From Escherichia coli O157:H7 (GTDB lineage: Bacteria > Pseudomonadota > Gammaproteobacteria > Enterobacterales > Enterobacteriaceae): 64,000 nt of DNA. The notes beneath the pieces were generated by a model. It had not been told where the DNA came from. It did no database searches and saw only the letters and a list, made by a program, of their open reading frames with translations. The DNA lies in the NCBI RefSeq assembly GCF_013167455.1, contig NZ_CP038328.1; one strand, given 5' to 3'. The translations under genes and the position numbers were made by a program. Below are positions 4,177 to 31,620 of this stretch, piece by piece. How positions within the stretch are numbered: position 1 is the stretch's first letter; the number at the start of each line of letters is the position of its first letter.

Positions 4177-5615
4177 TTATTTCAGCCCCAGAGCGGCTTT
4201 CATGGTGTAGAAGAGATCGGTCTGGTCGGTCAGTCCAACGACATTGGCGGCATGCGGGCCATACGCCGCAATACGCAACTGACTGCCGGTATGTTCTTGT
4301 GAATCCTCTTCGGAGTTCCCGTAACTCATCACCATCACTGCGCCATCTTTGGTATTTAGCGCCTGAGTGAGGCCCGGAGCTTTGGTATCCGGCGCAACAA
4401 TCTGGCTGGCGTGGGCGTGATCAGCGGTGACTATGACCAGCGTGTTACCATCCTTTTTGGCGAATTCCAGCGCCCGTTGTACGGCTTCATCGAGATCGAC
4501 CGTCTCGCCAATTTGCCCACAAGGATTCGCAGCATGATCCTGTTTATCGATTGACGCACCTTCAACTTGCAGGAAAAAGCCTTTCTCATTTTTACTCAAC
4601 AATTCAATGGCTTTGTCGGTCATCTGTGCCAGGGTCGGTACACTGTCATTACGTTGCGGATTAGGCGTACAGGTGACTGCGGGCTTATCGATATTACCGT
4701 GGTACGTTGCTTTCGGTCCTAGCCAGCGCACTGGCATATTGCCGTCAGCAAACAGGCCAAGCAGGGGTTTTTGCTGATTCGCTTCCGTCACCGAATTCAG
4801 TGAGGCAGCATCGCTCACCAACTGATAACCACGCGCCTGTGCCTGTTCACGCAGCGTTTTTCCCTGCCATTCACCAGCGGTTGCCGTTTCAGCAAAGGTT
4901 TTTGCGCCGCCGCCAAGCGTAACGTCGGCACGAGCGTTAAGCAGCTGTTCGGTAATCGATCCTTTTCCGCCTTTTTCCAGAGCGTTACCCGGACATTTTT
5001 CACTGGTCGCGCTCGGACCGTAGCATTTGCGCGAGGTCACATGCGCCACCAGCGCGGCGGGCGTGGCATCCTGCAACTCTGCGGTAGAAACGTTACCGGT
5101 CGCCAGACCTGCGGCTTTTGCCATTTCCAGAATCGTTGGGTGATCTTTTTCGTGAATATCGACGCCCAGCGCGCCGTTATAGGTTTTGACACCGGTTGAC
5201 CAGGCGGTTGCTGATGCAGCCGAGTCGGTGACGTAGTCCGGTTTTCCGGTTTTTTTATTCAGCGCATAGTGAGTGTATTGCCCGGTAAGCGGTAAGGCAT
5301 CGATACCTTTAAAAAAGCCGCCCGCACCTTCGGCATAATTACGTGCGGCAGTAATTTCCGAATCCCCCATCCCATCGCCAATCAGCAAAATAATATTTTT
5401 TGCAGGTTTATCGCTAAGAGAATCACGCAGAGCGGCGGTCTGATCAGCCGTTAAGCGGCGGTCTGATCAGCCGTTAAGCGGCGAGCACCGCCGGGTGCAG
5501 TAATATCGCCCTGAGCAGCCCGGTTTTCCAGAACAGGCATTTCTGGTGTCCGGGCTTTTGTCACAGGGGTAAACAGTAACGGTAAGAGTGCCAGTGCAAT
5601 AGTGCTTTGTTTCAC
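4177..5615 (-). pseudogene. phoA: Alkaline phosphatase phoA, reading frame broken by a 23-bp direct tandem duplication in the region encoding the first residues of the mature protein
   Basis: N-terminal fragment (ORF 5451..5684: ...[54 protein letters not shown]) and C-terminal fragment (4177..5388) lie in different frames. The span from the GTG start to the stop is 1439 nt, which is 1416 + 23. Confidence 0.85.
5432..5477. repeat. Perfect direct tandem duplication of a 23-bp unit (plus strand GCGGCGGTCTGATCAGCCGTTAA x2) inside phoA
   Basis: Both copies read directly and adjacent; the second copy brings a TAA in frame. Confidence 0.9.
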
Positions 5616-19168: not shown

Positions 19169-19932
19169 GAGAACGCCTCCCGTTGCTCAAATACGCGGCT
19201 TAAAACATATTCGCGCATGGCGATGAATTGTGGATCGGACTTGATGCTGCGGCTCGACTCTCCCGCAACAAAGCGGCGAGCAAAGTTGAGCGGCAGCCGC
19301 TCCAGCACGCGGCCAGGGCCGGGTGAAAGCAGAACCAGTTCAGTCGCCATAAACACCGCTTCTTCTATATCGTGGGTAATCAACAGCACCTGCTTGCCCG
19401 TCTCCTGCCAGAGTTTCAGCAGCAGGGTTTGCATCTGGTCGCGGGTGAAGGCGTCCAGCGCACCAAACGGTTCGTCGAGTAATAACAGCTGGGGATTCGC
19501 CGCCAGCGCGCGGGCAATCCCCACCCGCTGACGTTGACCACCGGAAAGCTGCCAGATGTAGCGTTTTTCTGCGCCTTCCAGCCCCACTTTTTTCAGCATC
19601 TGGTGCGCGATTTCCAGTCGCTGCATTTTCTCTATACCTGCCAATTGCAGGCCGAACGCCACGTTGTCCTGTACATTGCGCCACGGTAGTAGCCCTTCAT
19701 TCTGAAAAACTACGCCACGCTCTGCTCCCGGCCCCTCAATACGCTTACCCGCCAGTTGAATGCTGCCATGCTGATAAGGCACAAAACCGGCAATCAAATT
19801 CAGCAGGGTGGTTTTACCGCAGCCGGACGGCCCCAGCACCACCAGTAGCTCGCCGCTTTCCAGCGTCAGGTTGATATCTTCCAGTACCGGTTTGCCGCCA
19901 TAATCGGCGTAAAGATGAGAGATTTGCAGCAT
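19165..19932 (-). CDS. tauB: Taurine ABC transporter ATP-binding protein
   Basis: Walker [10 protein letters not shown] and LSGGQRQR signature. Confidence 0.95.
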
Positions 19933-19944
19933 CTGCGCCTCCTT

Positions 19945-20907
19945 TTATTGCACGAAGCGCGAGGTAACGTACTGGCTGTAATCATTCGCTACAGCCGGGA
20001 CCTTGCCCTGCTCTTTCAAAAACTGCGCGGTGTCGATGATCGCTTTGTTCACCGGTCCGGTCAGTTCTGCCGTTTGTTGCTGCGGCGTCAGATAGGTATT
20101 CCCCTTCACCAGCCCCGGAACGTCACCTTCAGGCACGCCGCTTAAACGCGCCAGTTTGCTGATGTTTTCCGGCTGTTTCAGCCACACGTCTGGGTTAGCA
20201 ATGTACGGTTGCTGAGCATCGATGGCGCTTTTAGAGAACGCTTTCACGACCTCAGGATGTTTCTCGGCAAAATCTTTGCGCACCACCCAAACGTCCAGCG
20301 TTGGCGCGCCCCACTGCCCGACCTGTTCAGAATCGGTCAACACCTTGCCGTCTTTTTCCAGGGCGTTAACCGCCGGTGCCCAGACATAAGCACCATCAAT
20401 ATCTCCCCGCTGCCAGGCAGCGATAATCGCGGGCGGCTGCAGGTTCACAATCTCCACTTGCCCGGGTTTAATGCCCCAGTGTTTCAGCGCCGCCAGCAGG
20501 CTGTAGTGGGTGGTGGAGATAAACGGTACGGCGATGCGTTTGCCAATCAGATCTTCCGGTTTGCTGATAGTTTTCTTTACCACCAGCGCTTCGGAGTTAC
20601 CCAGTTTTGACGCCAGCAAGAAGACTTCAATCGGCACCTGTTGGCTGGCTGCAACCGCTAACGGGCTGGAACCAAGGTTGCCGATTTGCACGTCGCCAGA
20701 AGCCAGCGCCCGCACGATGCTGGCTCCGCTGTCAAACTTGCGCCAGTCCACAGTTGCTCCACTTTCTTTAGCAAAGGTGTTATCGGCCTGAGCCACTTTC
20801 GCCGGTTCGGCTGAGGTTTGATACGCCACGGTGACGTTCACCGCCTGCGCCTGAAAAGCGATGAATGCCAGTGCGGCAAGAAGAGTGTTACGCGATGAAA
20901 TTGCCAT
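19945..20907 (-). CDS. tauA: Taurine-binding periplasmic protein
   Basis: 320 aa with signal peptide; first gene of tauABCD. Confidence 0.95.
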   Translation of the reverse strand: MAISSRNTLLAALAFIAFQAQAVNVTVAYQTSAEPAKVAQADNTFAKESGATVDWRKFDSGASIVRALASGDVQIGNLGSSPLAVAASQQVPIEVFLLASKLGNSEALVVKKTISKPEDLIGKRIAVPFISTTHYSLLAALKHWGIKPGQVEIVNLQPPAIIAAWQRGDIDGAYVWAPAVNALEKDGKVLTDSEQVGQWGAPTLDVWVVRKDFAEKHPEVVKAFSKSAIDAQQPYIANPDVWLKQPENISKLARLSGVPEGDVPGLVKGNTYLTPQQQTAELTGPVNKAIIDTAQFLKEQGKVPAVANDYSQYVTSRFVQ

Positions 20908-21209
20908 GATTGTCTGCTCCCCTGTCTTGTTATGGGAGCAGTATTTCGTTGCGGGTCAGTTTGATAAAGGAATTAAAAGGTCTTGTTAAGAACAAAGCGT
21001 TTTTAGAAAAAAATCGGCAATGGTTAGCGAGTTTGCGCATTTTGCGGTTTTGGCGAACGTATCCCGCCGGTTCACAAGCCAGATAAGATGTGCGCGCTCC
21101 GGCAAATTATTGCCATTTTGTTACATCCATTCCATATCTGTCGCTGGTTGATTGCCAGCGCCGCGCCGTGATGCATGATAGGAGAATTAGATAATAAGAG
21201 AAGAAAAGT

Positions 21210-21839
21210 ATGATTCGGGTAGTGCTGGTGGATGACCATGTTGTGGTGCGCTCTGGCTTCGCACAATTACTCTCTCTGGAAGACGATCTGGAGGTCATTG
21301 GTCAGTACAGTAGTGCCGCGCAGGCATGGTCGGCATTAATCCGTGATGACGTCAATGTTGCCGTCATTGATATTGCCATGCCGGACGAAAACGGCCTCAG
21401 TTTGCTTAAGCGCCTGCGTGCACAAAAACCGCAATTTCGCGCCATTATTCTTAGCATTTATGACGCGCCAACCTTTGTGCAAAGCGCGCTGGATGCCGGT
21501 GCCAGCGGGTATTTAACCAAACGCTGTGGGCCGGAAGAGTTAGTACAGGCGGTGCGCTCGGTCGGGCTGGGCGGGCATTATCTCTGTGCCGATGCGATTC
21601 GGGCTTTACGCGGCGGCGGGCAACCCGCCCAGGCGCTGGAAATTCTCACCCCACGAGAACGTGAAGTGTTTGAGTTACTGGTCAAAGGAGACAGCGTTAA
21701 AGAGATCGCCTTTAAACTCGAACTCAGTCATAAAACGGTACATGTGCATCGCGCCAATGTGCTGGGAAAACTGAACTGCCATAGCACCATTGAACTGGTA
21801 CATTTTGCGCTCGACCACCATCTGCTGGCGGGGCATTAA
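21210..21839 (+). CDS. UhpA-like NarL/LuxR-family response regulator (209 aa)
   Basis: MIRVVLVDDHVVVRSGFAQLL... receiver domain plus C-terminal LuxR HTH; strongly resembles UhpA along its length. Confidence 0.85.
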   Translation: MIRVVLVDDHVVVRSGFAQLLSLEDDLEVIGQYSSAAQAWSALIRDDVNVAVIDIAMPDENGLSLLKRLRAQKPQFRAIILSIYDAPTFVQSALDAGASGYLTKRCGPEELVQAVRSVGLGGHYLCADAIRALRGGGQPAQALEILTPREREVFELLVKGDSVKEIAFKLELSHKTVHVHRANVLGKLNCHSTIELVHFALDHHLLAGH

Positions 21840-23380
21840 TGTCGCGCAATCTTCGTCATTGGGTGATTTTGCTGTTTATTGTGCTAGCCTGGGGAACCGG
21901 CTGGCTGATGCTGTGGACGCTCAGCTTTTATCTGACCAATAACGGTCAACAGGCGGTGTTGTTTCTCCCGCAGGGAGTTTATCTCGCCCTTGTTATTTTG
22001 CTCTCTCGCCGCTACTGGCCTGCGTTGGTGCTCCCCCCTTTGCTGATGATGTTCTGGCTCCATAGTGAACAGCTATTGAACGGTTATCTCATGCTGGCAA
22101 CGCCGGTTATTAGCCTGTTTCCTGCCCTCCTTGCGCAAAACTTCTGGCACCGTTTTCCACTTTACTGGCAGCGTCTGACGTTGCTGTTAGCCACTGTCAC
22201 GGCAGCTTCATTGTTGAATACCGCCCTGCTCTCCCCTTTTATGTCAGGCCCAATAATGCTACCGGGTTTGACCTCATTTACCGGCGGCGTATTACTGACG
22301 CCGTTTGTCTATCTTATCTTTGAGTTTCTGCGCCAGCAGCATCGCTACCAGCTCCTGGGACTCGATACGCATAATCCCCCCTTGCGTACCTCTTTAATCA
22401 TCTGGTGTAGCCTGTTTTTTATTATTGGTATCGGCACTCAGATGGTGCTGTCACCTGAAATTGAACGTCTGCTGTTGATCGTGGTCTTTTTGCCCAATGT
22501 GGTGATGGCGTGGAAATTTGGCTGGCAAGGTGGCGTACTCTCCGGGCTTTTGGGCAGCATGATGATCACCATCGCCCGCCAGATTGGCGTGGGCTTTAGT
22601 AACCTGGTGGAGCTGGAGATTTTCCTCGCGACCCAGGCCTTGCTGGGAATTGGCCTGGGCATTGCCATCAGTCGCCAGCAACATCTGGCGCTAAACCTGC
22701 ACCATTACCGACAACGGCTGGAGGCCGAGCTGGCAGCGCGGCGGGCATTGGCGGAAAAGCTGATCCACACCGAGGAGGACACGCGAAAAAACCTGGCGCG
22801 AGAGCTGCACGACGAAATCGGTCAGAACATCACCGCCATTCAGATCCAGTCGCAACTGGTGAAGCGGGCGCGTGATCCGGCGCAAATTCAATCCGCAGCC
22901 AGCCAAATCAATGAGCTCGCCCGCCGCATTCATCTCTCCACCCGCCAATTGCTGCGCCAGTTGCGGCCTCCCGCGCTTGATGAACTGACATTTCGCGAAG
23001 CGTTGCTGCATCTGATTAATGAATTTGCCTTTAGTGAACGCGGCATTCATTGCCAGTTTGCCTATCAACTGAACTCCACACCAGAAAACGAAACGGTGCG
23101 CTTTACCTTGTATCGGTTATTGCAGGAGTTGCTCAATAACATCTGTAAACACGCCGAAGCCAGCGAAGTGACGATTATCCTGCGCCAGCAGGGAGAGGTA
23201 TTGCATCTGGAAGTCAGCGACAACGGTGTGGGGATCGCCAGCGGGAAAATGGCTGGATTTGGCATTCAGGGGATGCGTGAGCGCGTCAGCGCCCTGGGCG
23301 GCGACTTAACGCTCGAAAAACAGCACGGCACGCGGGTAATTGTTAACTTGCCCACATTTTTGCAACAAATCGCCGGATAA
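21839..23380 (+). CDS. UhpB-like sensor histidine kinase (membrane N-terminal domain plus HisKA_3/HATPase), 513 aa
   Basis: Hydrophobic N-terminal half, H-box LARELHDEIGQ, C-terminal ATPase; resembles UhpB. Start overlaps the regulator stop. Confidence 0.85.
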   Translation: MSRNLRHWVILLFIVLAWGTGWLMLWTLSFYLTNNGQQAVLFLPQGVYLALVILLSRRYWPALVLPPLLMMFWLHSEQLLNGYLMLATPVISLFPALLAQNFWHRFPLYWQRLTLLLATVTAASLLNTALLSPFMSGPIMLPGLTSFTGGVLLTPFVYLIFEFLRQQHRYQLLGLDTHNPPLRTSLIIWCSLFFIIGIGTQMVLSPEIERLLLIVVFLPNVVMAWKFGWQGGVLSGLLGSMMITIARQIGVGFSNLVELEIFLATQALLGIGLGIAISRQQHLALNLHHYRQRLEAELAARRALAEKLIHTEEDTRKNLARELHDEIGQNITAIQIQSQLVKRARDPAQIQSAASQINELARRIHLSTRQLLRQLRPPALDELTFREALLHLINEFAFSERGIHCQFAYQLNSTPENETVRFTLYRLLQELLNNICKHAEASEVTIILRQQGEVLHLEVSDNGVGIASGKMAGFGIQGMRERVSALGGDLTLEKQHGTRVIVNLPTFLQQIAG

Positions 23381-23422
23381 CCAGGAAAAAGTCTTAGGTA
23401 TCCCGGATTTTCTCTCATCCCC

Positions 23423-23445
23423 TTTCACTTTCATTTTCATATAGT
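23423..23445 (+). promoter_or_regulatory. Candidate activator-dependent promoter: three direct TTTCA(C/T) repeats, then -10 TATAGT with a poor -35
   Basis: Read directly in the 72-bp gap between the kinase and the UhpC-like gene; a GGAG RBS follows 6 nt before the 23465 ATG. Confidence 0.35.
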
Positions 23446-23464
23446 CAGCAACATGGAGACAACC

Positions 23465-24769
23465 ATGCACGCGCGTTCAGCGAGAGAAATTAATCAATGC
23501 TACCGGACATTACGTCCGCGATTGCTGATGTGCATGATTATTGGCTACGCCGCATTTTATCTGACGCGAAAAAGCGTGAATTACGTCCTTCCGGCGCTAC
23601 AAACCGACCTCGGACTGGATAAAGGCGACATTGGCCTGCTGGGTTCGCTGTTTTATCTCAGCTACGGATTGTCGAAATTTACCGCCGGACTGTGGCATGA
23701 CAGCCACGGACAACGCGGTTTTATGGGCGTCGGCTTGTTCGCCACCGGGTTATTGAACGTGGTGTTTGCCTTTGGCGAATCACTTACGCTTCTGCTTGTG
23801 GTCTGGACACTGAACGGTTTTTTTCAGGGCTGGGGATGGCCACCGTGTGCCCGCTTGCTGACCCACTGGTACTCACGCAATGAGCGCGGTTTCTGGTGGG
23901 GCTGCTGGAATATGTCGATCAACATTGGCGGAGCGATTATTCCGCTGATTAGCGCCTTTGCCGCCCACTGGTGGGGCTGGCAGGCCGCGATGCTGACACC
24001 GGGGATAATCAGCATGGCATTAGGGATCTGGTTAACGCTACAACTCAAAGGCACGCCCCAGGAAGAGGGATTACCGACAGTTGGTCACTGGCGTCACGAT
24101 CCGCTGGAGTTACGTCAGGAACAACAAAGTCCGCCGATGGGGCTGTGGCAAATGTTGCGCACCACCATGCTGCAAAATCCGCTGATCTGGCTACTGGGCG
24201 TCTCATATGTACTGGTTTATGTGATCCGGATTGCGCTTAACGACTGGGGCAATATCTGGCTGACGGAAAGCCACGGTGTCAACCTGCTCAGCGCCAACGC
24301 CACGGTAATGCTGTTTGAAGTGGGCGGCTTACTCGGCGCGTTATTTGCCGGATGGGGATCGGATTTGCTGTTTAGCGGGCAACGAGCGCCAATGATTTTG
24401 CTGTTCACGTTGGGGTTGATGGTGTCAGTCGCCGCACTGTGGCTGGCACCGGTTCATCACTACGCTCTGCTGGCAGTGTGCTTTTTTACCGTGGGCTTTT
24501 TCGTCTTTGGCCCACAAATGCTGATTGGACTTGCGGCGGTGGAGTGTGGGCACAAAGCTGCGGCGGGTTCAATCACCGGATTTCTCGGCCTGTTCGCTTA
24601 CCTTGGCGCGGCGCTGGCAGGCTGGCCGCTGTCGCTGGTCATCGAACGCTACGGCTGGCCGGGAATGTTCAGTTTACTCTCGGTCGCCGCAGTACTTATG
24701 GGTTTACTGCTGATGCCGTTACTGATGGCGGGCATCACCACCACTCACGCTCGAAGGATAAAACAATGA
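23465..24769 (+). CDS. UhpC-like MFS membrane sensor (organophosphate:Pi antiporter family), about 434 aa
   Basis: 12-TM MFS protein with strong resemblance to UhpC (FYLTRKS..., GPQMLIG...). Start at 23465 preferred over 23453 because of the RBS. Confidence 0.85.
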   Translation: MHARSAREINQCYRTLRPRLLMCMIIGYAAFYLTRKSVNYVLPALQTDLGLDKGDIGLLGSLFYLSYGLSKFTAGLWHDSHGQRGFMGVGLFATGLLNVVFAFGESLTLLLVVWTLNGFFQGWGWPPCARLLTHWYSRNERGFWWGCWNMSINIGGAIIPLISAFAAHWWGWQAAMLTPGIISMALGIWLTLQLKGTPQEEGLPTVGHWRHDPLELRQEQQSPPMGLWQMLRTTMLQNPLIWLLGVSYVLVYVIRIALNDWGNIWLTESHGVNLLSANATVMLFEVGGLLGALFAGWGSDLLFSGQRAPMILLFTLGLMVSVAALWLAPVHHYALLAVCFFTVGFFVFGPQMLIGLAAVECGHKAAAGSITGFLGLFAYLGAALAGWPLSLVIERYGWPGMFSLLSVAAVLMGLLLMPLLMAGITTTHARRIKQ

Positions 24770-25797
24770 AAATGACCTTTACCTCTACTCTGATTGCTTC
24801 TGCCGTTGCGCTGGCGACTTTAACGGGTGCCGCGCAGGCAAAAGGCCGGCTGGTGGTCTATTGCAGCGCCACCAATGAAATGTGTGAGGCCGAAACCAAA
24901 GCGTTTGGCGAGAAATATGATGTAAAAACCTCGTTTATCCGCAACGGTTCCGGAAGCACCCTGGCAAAAGTCGATGCTGAAAAGAAAAACCCCCAGGCTG
25001 ACGTCTGGTACGGCGGCACTTTAGACCCGCAATCGCAGGCTGGCGAGATGGGCCTGCTACAGGCGTATAAATCCCCTAACCTTGAGCAGATCATGGAGAA
25101 ATTCCGCGATCCGGCAAAAGTGAAAGGGAATCTGTCCTCTGCCGTTTATGTGGGGATCCTCGGTTTTGGCGTAAACACCGATCGTCTGAAAGAGAAAAAC
25201 CTGCCGGTGCCGAAGTGCTGGAAAGATCTCACCAAACCGGAATATAAAGGCGAAATTCAAATTGCCGATCCGCAAAGTTCCGGTACTGCCTACACCGCCC
25301 TGGCTACTTTTGCGCAGCTGTGGGGGGAAGATCAGGCCTTTGATTATCTAAAACAACTGAACGCCAACGTCTCTCAGTACACCAAATCAGGCATAGCCCC
25401 GGCACGTAACGCCGCCCGTGGCGAAACGGCGATTGGTATTGGCTTCCTGCATGACTACTCGCTGGAAAAAGAACAGGGCGCGCCGCTGGAGTTGATTTCC
25501 CCGTGTGAAGGTACGGGCTACGAAATTGGCGGCGTCAGCATTCTGAAAGGCGCGCGCAACCTCGACAACGCCAAACTGTTTGTGGACTGGGTATTATCAA
25601 AAGAAGCTCAGGAACTGGCGTGGAAGAAAGGGAAGTCTTATCAGATCCTGACTAATACCACCGCCGAAACGTCGCCAAATTCGCTGAAGCTCGACGACCT
25701 GAAATTAATCAACTACGACATGGATAAATATGGTTCCACGGATGTTCGTAAGGCATTGATTAATAAATGGGTCAGCGAAGTGAAGATGGGTAAATAA
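24766..25797 (+). CDS. AfuA/FbpA-family periplasmic substrate-binding protein (343 aa)
   Basis: Signal peptide MKMTFTSTLIASAVALATLTGAAQA then SBP fold; ATG overlaps the UhpC-like stop (ATGA). The long listed ORF 24439.. is an upstream extension. Confidence 0.8.
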   Translation: MKMTFTSTLIASAVALATLTGAAQAKGRLVVYCSATNEMCEAETKAFGEKYDVKTSFIRNGSGSTLAKVDAEKKNPQADVWYGGTLDPQSQAGEMGLLQAYKSPNLEQIMEKFRDPAKVKGNLSSAVYVGILGFGVNTDRLKEKNLPVPKCWKDLTKPEYKGEIQIADPQSSGTAYTALATFAQLWGEDQAFDYLKQLNANVSQYTKSGIAPARNAARGETAIGIGFLHDYSLEKEQGAPLELISPCEGTGYEIGGVSILKGARNLDNAKLFVDWVLSKEAQELAWKKGKSYQILTNTTAETSPNSLKLDDLKLINYDMDKYGSTDVRKALINKWVSEVKMGK

Positions 25798-25865
25798 ACC
25801 CGCATTAGGCGCATTTGCCGGGTGCAGCGCAGACGCCTGCCCCGGCCAACCATACCGGAACTGCT

Positions 25866-27944
25866 ATGTCACAGACACTTGCACTCCATCCCGTGAAAAA
25901 GCGGGATGCGATTTTCCTTTGGGTTTTGCTGGGCTGGCTGGCATTTGTCCTGTTGCCGAGCTGGAGCCTCGATTATGGCCTGCTGGAATCCACGAGTGAT
26001 GAGATCCTCGGGGCGTACGGCTGGTCGCATTTTAATATCAGCTGGCTGTGGTATTTACTCCCGAGCCTGTTGCTGGTCCGCCCGTTTCGTCAGGCCACGC
26101 GCGAACAGCGTAGTCGTCATTATTTCGATGCCGGCTGGGCATTGCTCTGTATGGCGTTTATCGTCATCAGCGCCACCGTGGCTGGACGCGGTTTAGGCTA
26201 CGCCGCCATCGTGCTGTTTGTCGAACTAGGCGCGATTATGACGCTGGCCTTAACCCGCCTCGAATGGCTGGGCGGCGACCGCTTCGTGATCGGCTCACTG
26301 ATTGCGATTGTGGCGCTGATTGGCATTTTTATCGTCTGGCCGAGCATCGCCATTTTTATCCCGATGTTCACCAACGACGCGGGAGAGCTCGCCCCGCTGG
26401 CGTTTATGACCGTGCTCTCGCAGGCACATATTGTTCAGGTGATCGTCAACTCTATCGTCTTGTCGATAGCGGTGGGGATAGGCTGTGCTTTCTTCGGCCT
26501 GGTGCTGGCGATTTATACCACGCGCATCGCTAAACGCAGCGCCATTATTGGTCGCATCTTTTCCATTTTGCCCATCGTTACGCCACCGTTTGTGGTCGGC
26601 TTAGGCGTGACGCTCATGATGGGGCGTTCCGGCTATGTTACGGAATTTATGGTGGAGTGGTTTGGGCTGACCAACACCAACTGGCTGTACGGTTTTACCG
26701 GGATCTGGCTGGCACAGGTTCTGGCATTCACGCCAATGGCATTTATGATCCTCGACGGGGCCATTAAAACCATTCATCCCTCGCTGGAAGAGGCCTCCTA
26801 CACCCTGCGCGCCAGCCGCTGGCAAACCTTTAACGGCGTGTTTGTGCCGTTGTTGAAGCCCGCGCTCGCCAATGCCTTTTTAATCGTCGTGGTACAGTCA
26901 CTGGCTGATTTCAGTAACCCGCTGGTACTTGGCGGTAACTTCGACGTACTGGCGACGCAAATTTACTTCTATATTACCGGCTCGCAGCTGGATTATCAGG
27001 CCGCCAGCACCCTTGGCGCTTTCCTGCTGCTGTTCTCGCTGCTGGTGTTCTGCATACAGTATATGTGGATTGGTAAACGCTCTTACGTCACGGTTTCCGG
27101 CAAATCCTACCGTGGCGACGTCCAGCCGCTTCCGGTCACCCTGGTGTGGAGCGTGGTCGCCATACTTGCGATATGGATTGCCTTTAACGCCCTGCTCTAC
27201 GGCAGCATTTTCTACGGCAGCTTCACGGTGAACTGGGGCGTGGACTACACCCTGACGCTGGATAACTTTATCAAGCTATTTGGTCAGGGAATGAGCGACG
27301 GCGCGTGGCCTTCACTGCTGGATACCCTGCTCTACGCCGGGATTGCCGCTCCCATTACCGCTATCTTTGGCCTGCTCATCGCCTGGGTGGTGGTGCGTCA
27401 ACAATTCAAAGGCAAAAAGACCATCGAGTTCACCACCATGCTGTGCTTTGCCGTACCGGGTACGGTGGCGGGCGTTTCGTATATTCTTGCCTTTAACAGC
27501 GCTCCGGTTTATCTCACCGGAACGGCGGCAATTGTGATTATCTCGATGGTGATGCGTAACGTTCCGGTGGGTATTCGCGCCGGGATTGCAGGCCTGGGGC
27601 AGATCGACAAATCGCTGGATGAAGCCTCACTCAGCCTGCGCGCGGGTTCCTTGCGAACCATAACCCACATTTTACTGCCGCTGCTGCGTCCGGCCATTCT
27701 CTCGGCCCTGATCTACAGCTTTGTGCGGGCCATCACGACGGTCAGCGCCATCGTCTTTCTCGTCACGCCGGACACCCGCGTGGCAACCGCCTACATTCTT
27801 AACCGCGTTGAAGACGGCGAATATGGCGTAGCCATCGCCTATGGTTCGATTCTGATCGTGGTGATGCTGGCGATTATTTTCCTCTTTGACTGGCTGATCG
27901 GAGAAGCACGTATCTCCCGTTCTAAAGCCAAAAACCAGGCGTAA
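25866..27944 (+). CDS. AfuB-type ABC permease with two fused transmembrane domains (about 692 aa)
   Basis: Large polytopic protein typical of FbpB/AfuB-type permeases; ATG at 25866 preferred over the TTG-initiated listed ORF. Confidence 0.8.
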
Positions 27945-27955
27945 TGGAGCGCACT

Positions 27956-29002
27956 ATGAGTCAGAAAAATTTTGTGGAACTGCGCAACGTCACTAAACGA
28001 TTCGGCAGTAATACGGTTATCGACAATATCAATCTCACCATCCCACAAGGGCAAATGGTGACGCTGCTTGGCCCTTCCGGCTGCGGCAAAACCACCATTT
28101 TGCGTCTGGTTGCCGGGCTGGAAAAACCGAGTGAAGGGCAAATCTTTATTGATGGCGAAGATGTCACGCATCGTTCCATTCAGCAGCGCGATATCTGCAT
28201 GGTGTTTCAGTCATACGCTCTGTTCCCGCATATGTCGCTGGGCGAAAACGTCGGCTACGGGTTAAAGATGCTCGGCGTGTCGCGTAGCGAAGTAAAGCAG
28301 CGGGTGAAAGAGGCGCTGGCAATGGTGGATCTGGAAGGGTTCGAGGACCGCTATGTCGACCAGATTTCCGGTGGTCAGCAACAGCGCGTGGCGCTGGCCC
28401 GCGCGTTGATCCTCAAACCAAAGGTGCTGCTGTTTGATGAGCCGTTAAGTAACCTCGATGCCAACCTGCGCCGCAGCATGCGCGATAAGATCCGCGAGCT
28501 GCAAAAGCAGTTTAATATCACGTCGCTCTACGTGACTCACGATCAAAGTGAGGCCTTCGCGGTTTCCGACACTGTGCTGGTGATGAATAAAGGTCACATC
28601 ATGCAGATTGGCTCACCGCAGGATCTCTATCGTCAGCCAGCCTCCCGCTTTATGGCAAGTTTTATGGGCGACGCCAACCTGTTCCCGGCGAACTTTAGCG
28701 AAGAGTATGTCGATATCTACGGTTATCGCCTGCCGCGCGCGGCGCATTTCCCGGTGCAAGGTAGCGGCACCGTCGGCGTTCGCCCGGAAGCCATCACCTT
28801 AAGCAATCACGGCGAAGAGAGTCAGCGTTGTGTTATTCGCCATGTCGCCTACATGGGGCCGCAGTACGAAGTGACCGTAGAGTGGCATGGACAGGAGATT
28901 TTATTACAAGTAAACGCCACCCGTTTACAGCCCGATATTGGTGAGCACTATTACCTCGAAATCCATCCTTACGGGATGTTTGTTTTAGCGGATGCGGCAT
29001 AA
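27956..29002 (+). CDS. AfuC-type ABC ATP-binding protein (about 348 aa; alternative start 27944)
   Basis: Walker [10 protein letters not shown], signature [15 protein letters not shown], Walker B LLFDEP; GGAG RBS upstream of 27956. Confidence 0.85.
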
Positions 29003-29084
29003 AAATAGCACATAAACGGTCCCCATCTGTCTTGAGGGACCGTTCACCTGGTTAGGCTTCGGACAACAATTATTCTCCATTGTT

Positions 29085-29137
29085 ATATACTATAGGGGGG
29101 TATGCATTGACATATAGCATACCCCCCTATAGTATAT
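29085..29137 (+). promoter_or_regulatory. frmR operator/promoter: perfect 21-bp inverted repeat ATATACTATAGGGGGGTATGC ... GCATACCCCCCTATAGTATAT around an 11-bp spacer containing TTGACA
   Basis: Palindrome verified base by base; lies about 25 bp upstream of the frmR start. Confidence 0.7.
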
Positions 29138-29161
29138 TGCGTGCAGATGATGAGGTGCGAA

Positions 29162-29437
29162 ATGCCCAGTACTCCGGAAGAGAAGAAAAAGGTCCTTACT
29201 CGAGTTCGTCGTATTCGAGGGCAGATTGATGCTCTGGAACGGTCGCTGGAGGGTGATGCCGAATGCCGTGCCATACTCCAACAGATCGCTGCCGTTCGGG
29301 GCGCGGCTAATGGGCTGATGGCAGAAGTGCTTGAAAGCCATATCCGGGAAACGTTTGACCGAAATGACTGCTACAGCCGCGAAGTCAGCCAATCCGTTGA
29401 CGACACTATTGAACTGGTTCGTGCCTATCTTAAATAG
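29162..29437 (+). CDS. frmR: Formaldehyde-responsive repressor FrmR (RcnR/CsoR family), 91 aa
   Basis: [30 protein letters not shown]...; listed ORF is 7 codons longer. Confidence 0.9.
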
Positions 29438-29441
29438 CTGA

Positions 29442-30581
<1,140 letters not shown>

Positions 30582-30673
30582 TTTCCCGCTGGTTTACCCC
30601 GTCCACTTCAGACGGGGTTCTTAATACTCTCTCCGGGCAGCCGTCCGGGGGATTAACCGTGAGATAATGACTG

Positions 30674-31507
30674 ATGGAACTCATTGAAAAACATGCCAGC
30701 TTTGGCGGCTGGCAAAATGTGTATCGGCATTATTCCGCATCACTGAAATGTGAAATGAATGTCGGCGTCTATCTCCCACCAAAAGCTGCAGGTGAAAAAT
30801 TACCGGTGCTGTACTGGCTTTCGGGCCTGACCTGCAATGAGCAGAATTTCATTACTAAATCGGGGGTGCAGCGTTACGCGGCTGAGCACAACATTATTGT
30901 TGTTGCGCCGGACACCAGTCCGCGAGGCAGTCATGTCGCAGATGCCGACCGTTACGATCTCGGGCAAGGTGCCGGGTTTTACCTGAACGCGACGCAAGCG
31001 CCGTGGAATGAACATTACAAAATGTATGACTATATCCGCAACGAGCTGCCGGATTTAGTGATGAATCATTTTCCGGCAACGGCCAAAAAGTCTATCTCTG
31101 GTCATTCTATGGGCGGACTGGGCGCGCTGGTGCTGGCGTTACGTAACCCAGATGAATATGTCAGCGTCTCGGCGTTTTCGCCCATTGTCTCCCCATCGCA
31201 AGTACCGTGGGGACAGCAAGCCTTTGCCGCATATCTTGGTGAAAATAAAGAGGCCTGGTTGGATTACCATCCGGTGAGTCTTATTTCACAAGGTCAACGC
31301 GTTGCGGAAATCATGGTTGATCAGGGGTTGAGTGATGATTTTTACGCGGAACAGCTGCGGACTCAAAATCTTGAAAAGATCTGCCAGGAGATGAATATCA
31401 AAACGTTAATCCGTTATCACGAGGGTTACGACCACAGCTATTATTTTGTCTCCAGTTTTATTGGCGAGCATATTGCCTACCACGCCAATAAACTGAATAT
31501 GCGTTGA
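30674..31507 (+). CDS. frmB: S-formylglutathione hydrolase (esterase D family)
   Basis: 277 aa with GHSMGG nucleophile elbow. Confidence 0.9.
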   Translation: MELIEKHASFGGWQNVYRHYSASLKCEMNVGVYLPPKAAGEKLPVLYWLSGLTCNEQNFITKSGVQRYAAEHNIIVVAPDTSPRGSHVADADRYDLGQGAGFYLNATQAPWNEHYKMYDYIRNELPDLVMNHFPATAKKSISGHSMGGLGALVLALRNPDEYVSVSAFSPIVSPSQVPWGQQAFAAYLGENKEAWLDYHPVSLISQGQRVAEIMVDQGLSDDFYAEQLRTQNLEKICQEMNIKTLIRYHEGYDHSYYFVSSFIGEHIAYHANKLNMR

Positions 31508-31516
31508 TAATAGTGC

Positions 31517-31620
31517 ACGACTGCCGGATGCGGCGTGAACGCCTTATCCGCCTACATTTCGCCCGCAGGCCGTAGGCATGATAAGACGCGCATAGCGTCG
31601 CATCAGGCATCTGCGCACGA
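31517..31620. repeat. REP-type palindromic elements downstream of frmB
   Basis: GCCGGATGCGGCGTGAACGCCTTATCCG and GGCATGATAAGACGCG...GCATCAGGC motifs read directly. Confidence 0.75.

Follow-up and report, generated by a model that had tools for sequence, protein, structure and literature searches.

Gene content and genomic position of the locus

The present analysis concerns a run of six genes at positions 21210-29002 of a 64,000-nucleotide stretch of the Escherichia coli O157:H7 genome (contig NZ_CP038328.1, assembly GCF_013167455.1), which we refer to as the window. The six open reading frames (ORFs) are all located on the + strand, between tauA (19945-20907, - strand) on the upstream side and frmR/frmA/frmB on the downstream side, and have the coordinates given in an earlier note on this DNA. 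They encode, in this order, a response regulator similar to UhpA (21210-21839), a sensor histidine kinase similar to UhpB (21839-23380), a UhpC-type protein of the major facilitator superfamily (MFS; 23465-24769), and the three parts of an ATP-binding cassette (ABC) importer: the periplasmic binding protein AfuA (24766-25797), the permease AfuB (25866-27944) and the ATPase AfuC (27956-29002). Both gene overlaps noted previously are present: the regulator and kinase genes share 1 nt (position 21839), and the stop codon of the MFS gene and the start codon of afuA are joined in an ATGA (24769 and 24766). The MFS ORF opens at 23453, and its likely start is the ATG at 23465, which follows a conserved GGAG. 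The same ATG is the RefSeq start in a 100%-identical genome, in which the permease and the ATPase begin at 25866 and 27956; an in-frame ATG at 27944 is an alternative start of afuC.

In K-12, the site is occupied by yaiS, ykiC, yaiP, yaiX' (split by IS2) and yaiO, and blastn homology between K-12 and the window breaks off at position 20945 and is picked up again at 29070. Thus, the six genes lie in a replacement island of 8.1 kb (20946-29069, no strand), as had been proposed from the K-12 gene content. The GC content of the region is unremarkable. The segment from 19900 to 31600 differs from E. coli O157:H7 Sakai at 1 base in 11.7 kb, and the Sakai counterparts of the six genes run from ECs_0418 (regulator) down to ECs_0413 (afuC). 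Among 5426 complete E. coli genomes, 518 carry the whole island; the sampled carriers include one O145-labelled genome (99.1% identity) and a divergent cattle isolate (94.5%).

The locus is already known. It is O-island 20 (OI-20, as named in PMC4546632) of enterohaemorrhagic E. coli (EHEC), with fusR (Z0463), fusK (Z0462), Z0461 and afuABC (Z0460-Z0458), and no sequence difference was found beyond the 1 base in 11.7 kb by which the segment departs from Sakai. The RefSeq accessions in a genome identical to the window are those published for Z0459 and Z0461-Z0463. The earlier note had read the locus as a sugar-phosphate-sensing circuit; this reading is supported by the data below, but the published identity of the genes, with fucose as the signal, had been missed. 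Because the locus has been characterised as a determinant of colonisation and transmission in attaching-effacing pathogens, its occurrence in a window of the O157:H7 type is to be expected.

In the published description, FusKR and Z0461 form a fucose system and AfuABC is a separate sugar-phosphate transporter. According to two reviews (PMC11644481, PMC5120142), FusK senses fucose and FusR represses ler through a 29-bp site; a review from 2024 holds that FusKR occurs in EHEC O157:H7 alone. In a transcriptome paper, Z0462 is listed as fusK, Z0463 as fusR, Z0461 as a "fucose transporter (optimal import)" and Z0459 as afuB; in RNA sequencing (RNA-seq) of EDL933 in bovine gut contents, afuB was up together with Z0461-Z0463, a joint rise that is consistent with one operon. 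A literature search for papers linking FusK with UhpB or glucose-6-phosphate (G6P) gave only Sit et al. 2015 (PMC4546632) and a passing mention. As to what FusK responds to, fucose is the published signal, whereas genomic context and homology point to hexose phosphates.

Paralogy of the sensor genes to uhpA, uhpB and uhpC

The regulator (FusR; Z0463, ECs_0418, WP_000621918.1) has UhpA as its best NCBIfam model, with a score of 194 bits that lies under the 258-bit equivalog cut-off. It is 49% identical to K-12 UhpA, and the recognition helix KTVHVHRAN is identical in the two proteins and kept in 78 of the 80 regulators of the homologous loci described below. Given the score below the cut-off, the 49% identity and the identical helix, we regard it as a paralogue rather than an orthologue of UhpA. 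The kinase (FusK; Z0462, ECs_0417, WP_000089287.1) contains MASE1 (residues 11-281), HisKA_3 and HATPase_c domains in Pfam and aligns with UhpB over its full length with 35% identity; UhpB is its best NCBIfam model at 379 bits, just under the 408-bit equivalog cut-off. The MFS protein (Z0461, ECs_0416) passes the UhpC model NF008661 (588 bits, cut-off 564) and fails the NCBIfam UhpT model (214 bits, cut-off 497), with 53% identity to UhpC versus 29% to UhpT. Its TGFLG corresponds to TGFVG in UhpC and to the ion-pair motif DGIKG in UhpT (position of UhpT D388/K391), and the residues aligned to UhpT Arg46 and Arg275 are retained. The model score, identity and motif make it possible to suggest that this protein is a hexose-phosphate receptor. 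As judged from sequence, then, the three sensor proteins are full-length paralogues of UhpA, UhpB and UhpC, and the assignments of the earlier note, including the AfuABC/FbpABC type of the importer, agree with the NCBIfam, Pfam and identity values.

The uhp-like genes of the island form a second set, a point that the earlier note had singled out for checking. The canonical uhpT-uhpC-uhpB-uhpA genes are intact in Sakai (ECs_4603-4606) beside the island genes ECs_0413-0418, and a search for distant DNA matches to the island MFS gene gave two places in island-positive genomes and one in nearly all others; the possibility that the island holds the sole uhp copy was rejected on these grounds. The two systems, which coexist in O157:H7, share a NarL-type regulator with an identical recognition helix, a MASE1 kinase and a UhpC receptor. 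They differ in that the island regulator and kinase stay under the equivalog cut-offs and in that the output of the island is an ATP-driven ABC importer and not the antiporter UhpT.

The importer as a sugar-phosphate transporter

AfuA (ECs_0415) matches PDB entries 4R72-75 with E = 1.5e-169 and ~80% identity; these are structures of Actinobacillus pleuropneumoniae AfuA solved with G6P, fructose-6-phosphate (F6P) and sedoheptulose-7-phosphate (S7P) (Sit et al. 2015, PMC4546632). It also matches PDB 8X1A (E = 1.7e-173), an entry with 99% identity to the protein cluster of Vibrio cholerae/metoecus, while the matches to ferric FbpA/HitA proteins have E = 2e-12 or weaker. [quoted passage not shown] The sequence GFLHDY, which includes H229 and D230, was present in all 83 AfuA sequences checked, and the motif G[TS]GYE.GG around E253 in 77 of them, the other 6 being unmatched by the pattern. 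In the alignment with HitA, AfuA has Leu228-His229 at the place of the Tyr-Tyr iron ligands. From these comparisons, the binding protein groups with AfuA of the sugar-phosphate type, which the earlier note had seen as fitting the arrangement, and not with iron binders: the His, Asp and Glu residues are kept and the iron-binding Tyr pair is absent.

AfuB (Z0459, ECs_0414, WP_000084161.1) is a fused permease of 692 aa with two BPD_transp_1 domains, and AfuC (ECs_0413) passes the "ferric" FbpC/AfuC model NF008513 (699 bits, cut-off 496). The importer thus has the same sugar-binding motif and the same permease and ATPase architecture as AfuABC of A. pleuropneumoniae and Citrobacter rodentium, the orthologues for which transport of G6P and F6P was shown in 2015 (PMC4546632). 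In the same study, AfuA of C. rodentium bound G6P, and a uhpT mutant was rescued on G6P/F6P by afuABC of this species; the OI-20 region of C. rodentium was reported to be >83% identical to that of EHEC at the amino-acid level, and afuA to be important for competitive colonisation and transmission. The behaviour of these orthologues suggests that EHEC AfuABC would import hexose phosphates as well.

Conservation of the six-gene cassette

A search with an AfuA alignment over one genome per species yielded 374 relatives; the best 80 loci were retained, and the six window proteins were placed on these loci by tblastn. The order regulator-kinase-MFS-AfuA-AfuB-AfuC on one strand was found in all 79 Enterobacterales loci with enough upstream sequence, and likewise in one Vibrio and one Photobacterium locus, which contain the identical six genes (81 of 81 informative loci in total, covering ~35 Enterobacterales and Vibrionaceae genera). 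Among these are Citrobacter, Klebsiella, Raoultella, Enterobacter, Leclercia, Serratia and Buttiauxella, as well as Rahnella, Erwinia, Pantoea, Yersinia, Photorhabdus, Pectobacterium and Brenneria. Protein identity for the sensor genes fusR and fusK ranges from 55 to 97% across the ~35 genera; the kinase is the most diverged protein of the cassette (55-59% in distant genera) and AfuA the least (81-87%). The genes bordering the six differ between genera, and the cassette therefore moves as a unit. A UhpT-type gene was found in none of the 82 cassette loci; downstream, there are instead the UhpC-like MFS gene and afuABC. The coupling of sensor and importer that had been proposed from the ATGA overlap is strongly supported by the invariant synteny and by the uhpT-type promoter box described below.

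The statement that FusKR is restricted to O157:H7 is contradicted both by the 518 island-positive E. coli genomes and by the ~35 genera with the cassette. Its correction, together with that of the persisting "ferric transporter" annotation, removes two errors from the description of this locus.

In the cluster of Vibrio cholerae/metoecus, the six genes recur in unchanged order, with 62% identity to the island for the regulator, 42% for the kinase, 53% for the MFS protein and 67-76% for AfuABC. In V. cholerae, too, the system is already known: a system for taking up hexose-6-phosphate was reportedly described by Moisi et al. in 2013 (J Bacteriol 195:1800), and it is said to comprise VCA0682-VCA0687 (uhpABC-like genes plus an ABC transporter) and to be under Pho regulation.

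Unlike the island, the Pasteurellaceae locus examined (Gallibacterium anatis, n = 1) carries afuABC without sensor genes. In this locus (L086, 12411-13118), a class B acid phosphatase gene directly follows afuABC, an arrangement that suggests a different use of imported or periplasmic sugar phosphates.

A conserved inverted repeat and a predicted uhpT-type promoter

Nearly all loci have a spacer of 83-90 nt between the kinase and MFS genes. When 76 distinct spacers were aligned, four conserved blocks with variable sequence between them were seen: an inverted repeat after the kinase stop codon, the element TCTCATCC, a -10 hexamer, and GGAG followed by the start codon (ATG 23465 in the window). 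In the window, the repeat is the 17-bp sequence CCAGGAAAAAGTCTTAG (23381-23397, + strand). The element TCTCATCC (23413-23420, + strand) is at least 90% conserved in the 76 distinct sequences, is located at about -35/-40 and is the counterpart of TCTCAGGCC in the uhpT promoter. The hexamer TATAGT (23440-23445, + strand), which falls in a conserved TA.A.T column block, is the -10 element of a predicted inducible promoter, P2.

The repeat pattern CYAGGAANNNTTCCTRG was present in 82 of 82 loci at up to 3 mismatches, was a perfect palindrome in 16 and began at the first base past the kinase stop codon in 75 of the 82. Perfect palindromes occur in other genera (e.g., CCAGGAATAATTCCTGG and CTAGGAATTATTCCTAG), including Vibrio (CTAGGAAATATTCCTAG, at the kinase-MFS junction) and Photobacterium (CTAGGAATTTTTCCTAG). 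The pattern has its sole match in the 64-kb window at this site, and 27 of 100 shuffles gave one match at 2 mismatches; because a single match of this quality is not rare by chance, the evidence for the box lies in its fixed position and its conservation.

The box pattern also matches the canonical uhpT promoter in Sakai, where it reads CTAAGAAATTTTCCAGG on the uhpT strand, to be compared with CTAAGACTTTTTCCTGG, the reverse complement of the island box. The spacing of the elements agrees within 1 nt: the distance from the box start to the -10 hexamer is 60 nt in the K-12 uhpT promoter and 59 nt in the island promoter, and that from the box start to the TCTCA element is 33 and 32 nt, respectively. 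With the K-12 CRP-like site set at -103, the position reported for a CRP site upstream of the UhpA site (PMC5352689), the uhpT transcription start site (TSS) is position 4199 of the K-12 record (L002) and the box is centred at -64, which fits the published CRP site. UhpA has been reported to bind the uhpT promoter at two sites, strongly at the upstream and weakly at the downstream one. The island box is centred at about -63 from a TSS predicted near 23452, 7 nt past the -10 hexamer. Unlike the canonical promoter, the island promoter has no evident CRP site.

Conservation and the match to the uhpT promoter make the repeat at 23381-23397 the predicted binding site of FusR. The uhpT-type promoter precedes the UhpC-like gene, and the predicted inducible unit therefore consists of this gene plus afuABC and not of afuABC alone. 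The receptor gene would thus lie downstream of the inducible promoter, whereas canonical uhpC is located inside the constitutive uhpABC operon. The proposal that an importer fills the slot of UhpT is supported as regards the ABC importer as the output, but has to be modified with respect to the extent of the unit.

A promoter-like site, P1 (TTGCCA-16-CATGAT; 21152-21179, + strand), was found upstream of the regulator gene in a consensus scan; its hexamers are conserved across genera, and it presumably serves the regulator-kinase pair. The motif TGTTAC-N8-CCATA (21119-21136, + strand), ~20 nt upstream of the -35 hexamer of P1, is conserved in a MAFFT alignment of 21 genera despite a differing upstream neighbour, and it may be a binding site for a regulator of the sensor genes.

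The box pattern had no match at up to 2 mismatches in the ler upstream region or the fucA-fucP intergenic region, and the only 3-mismatch matches in the fuc region lie inside coding sequence. Sakai does contain the reported 29-bp FusR site of ler, which has no resemblance to the box. In the K-12 fuc region (L089), six 3-mismatch matches were counted, all within genes, against 0.84 expected from shuffles; this excess in coding sequences is probably a composition effect.

Proposed mechanism and alternative explanations

We suggest, with a probability of about 0.72, that the six genes constitute a single cassette, old and mobile, by which hexose and heptose phosphates are sensed and imported, and of which OI-20 is an accessory copy in E. 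coli. According to this model, the conserved sigma-70-like promoter P1 would supply the regulator and the MASE1 kinase, and read-through from it would yield a small amount of receptor. The UhpC-type MFS receptor would detect a periplasmic sugar phosphate and switch the kinase on, as UhpC does for UhpB. The phosphorylated regulator would then bind the 17-bp inverted repeat right after the kinase stop codon, centred at about -63, and activate the uhpT-type promoter P2, from which the MFS gene, afuA, afuB and afuC would be read as one transcript. The effects of FusK and FusR on the enterocyte effacement locus (LEE) and on the fuc genes, as published, would then rank as a secondary output of that regulator. 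The nature of the signal, the binding of the regulator at the box and the TSS are steps that we infer. As FusR and UhpA share their recognition helix and their boxes are nearly identical, the island and uhp systems may also cross-activate each other's promoters in O157:H7.

Several observations weigh against this model. The gap from the MFS gene to afuA measures -4 to 60 nt in most genera, but 86-300 nt in Yersinia, Pectobacterium and Samsonia, and a further promoter for afuABC may therefore exist in Yersinia and Pectobacterium. The transporter does not need the sensor, given that Pasteurellaceae carry afuABC without it. The repeat of E. coli and Citrobacter is imperfect, with 2 mismatches in its right half, and for P2 the TSS, the binding of the regulator and the induction are all predicted from the DNA sequence. 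Moreover, FusKR has been reported to repress, and not to activate, z0461, and Z0461 has been described as aiding fucose import (PMC6199705). Autophosphorylation of FusK on fucose is also on record, from the one direct biochemical study of this kinase (Pacheco et al. 2012, as given in PMC11644481 and PMC5120142).

The last two points belong to the published account, in which FusK is a direct fucose sensor, FusR mainly represses LEE, fuc and z0461, Z0461 is a fucose importer and afuABC is separate. This account is further supported by the reported binding of FusR to the 29-bp ler site, by the presence of that site in Sakai, and by the reduced growth of a z0461 mutant on fucose described in follow-up papers. 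As an explanation of the whole locus it nevertheless seems unlikely, because the cassette is intact in ~35 genera, including plant, insect and marine bacteria, with flanks unlike those of E. coli and outside the O157:H7 lineage to which FusKR had been assigned. To our knowledge, most of these genera lack LEE. In addition, FusK is a MASE1 protein of the UhpB type, a kinase that would be expected to need an MFS partner for sensing, by analogy with UhpB/UhpC. Z0461 passes the UhpC cut-off, belongs to the organophosphate:phosphate MFS group and keeps the Arg46 and Arg275 equivalents, and the conserved box is found neither upstream of ler nor in the fucA-fucP regulatory region, the ler site itself being unlike it. 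The MFS protein could also be a working sugar-phosphate/phosphate antiporter that substitutes for UhpT, with the kinase sensing something else. Its gene does occupy the place of uhpT relative to the uhpT-type promoter, the two Arg residues are retained, and a chlamydial UhpC homologue is said to transport G6P. This explanation is quite improbable in view of the 53% identity to UhpC as opposed to 29% to UhpT, the passed UhpC and failed UhpT models (214 bits against 497 for the latter) and the TGFLG in place of the DGIKG ion pair; a second transporter for the same substrates beside a high-affinity ABC importer would, moreover, be redundant.

A different objection is that the inverted repeat might form an RNA hairpin for termination or attenuation of the regulator-kinase transcript and not be a protein site, which would account for its start right after the stop codon in 75 of 82 loci and for symmetric changes that preserve the palindrome. 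We consider this very improbable: a T-run does not follow the repeat, the E. coli repeat pairs poorly, the repeat takes no part in the spacer's minimum-energy fold (-11.5 kcal/mol), conserved promoter elements stand at fixed distances past it, and the uhpT promoter has this sequence at -64, inside the reported UhpA-binding region. As the leading explanation, an intrinsic terminator at the box was rejected for the lack of a T-run, the weak fold and the position at -64 of uhpT. Finally, current annotation ("fbpC", "periplasmic iron-binding protein") makes the ABC transporter a ferric-iron importer. This is scarcely credible, even though RefSeq and NCBIfam names and a distant FbpA/HitA similarity speak for it: the Tyr-Tyr ligands are replaced by Leu-His, AfuA is ~80% identical to the protein crystallised with G6P, F6P and S7P, and Sit et al. 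(PMC4546632) showed the iron annotation to be wrong. The reading was accordingly discarded, on the Leu-His pair at the iron-ligand positions and the similarity to solved sugar-phosphate structures.

The conserved cassette and its promoter argue for FusKR, Z0461 and AfuABC as a single unit. It is a separate matter whether the conserved role of FusK, FusR and Z0461 is the hexose-phosphate-induced expression of Z0461-afuABC and not primarily a response to fucose, with the LEE and fuc effects as a lineage-specific add-on or cross-talk; here we see the chances as even. The fucose and hexose-phosphate views could be compatible, with extra FusR targets having been gained in EHEC. By sequence, synteny and promoter architecture, the FusKR "fucose sensor" appears as a UhpAB paralogue tied to a UhpC-like receptor and AfuABC, and this reinterpretation could revise the view of a widely cited virulence signal. 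What the comparative argument and the defined promoter add to the existing description is that fucose and hexose phosphate become directly testable against each other.

Minor features of the island and its surroundings

The spacer between afuA and afuB contains a GC-rich hairpin (25817-25846, + strand; ViennaRNA fold of 25795-25868, -25.1 kcal/mol). The spacer is ~53-75 nt long in about two thirds of the loci and longer in the remainder. The hairpin is possibly an mRNA stabiliser or an attenuator, and it may raise the expression of the binding protein relative to the membrane components. A second hairpin (29015-29044, + strand; -18.5 kcal/mol, no T-run) follows afuC at the island edge and is a weak terminator candidate of uncertain function.

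Positions 27596-29002 of the window (the 3' part of afuB plus afuC) are 86% identical to a truncated "permease + fbpC" fragment in island-negative E. coli. The fragment was found in several hundred island-negative records, including K-12-like genomes at ~0.278 Mb, and we take it to be the afuBC remnant of the CP4-6 prophage. Plasmid-borne matching places numbered 44, and one listed example of these is the "permease + fbpC" fragment.

Outside the island, directly upstream of frmR, there is a near-perfect palindrome of ~53 nt (ATATACTATAGGGGGGTATGCATTGACATATAGCATACCCCCCTATAGTATAT; 29085-29137) that K-12 has as well. The region's best match to a sigma-70-like promoter, TTGACA-17-TAGTAT, overlaps with it, and the palindrome is presumably the FrmR operator/promoter.

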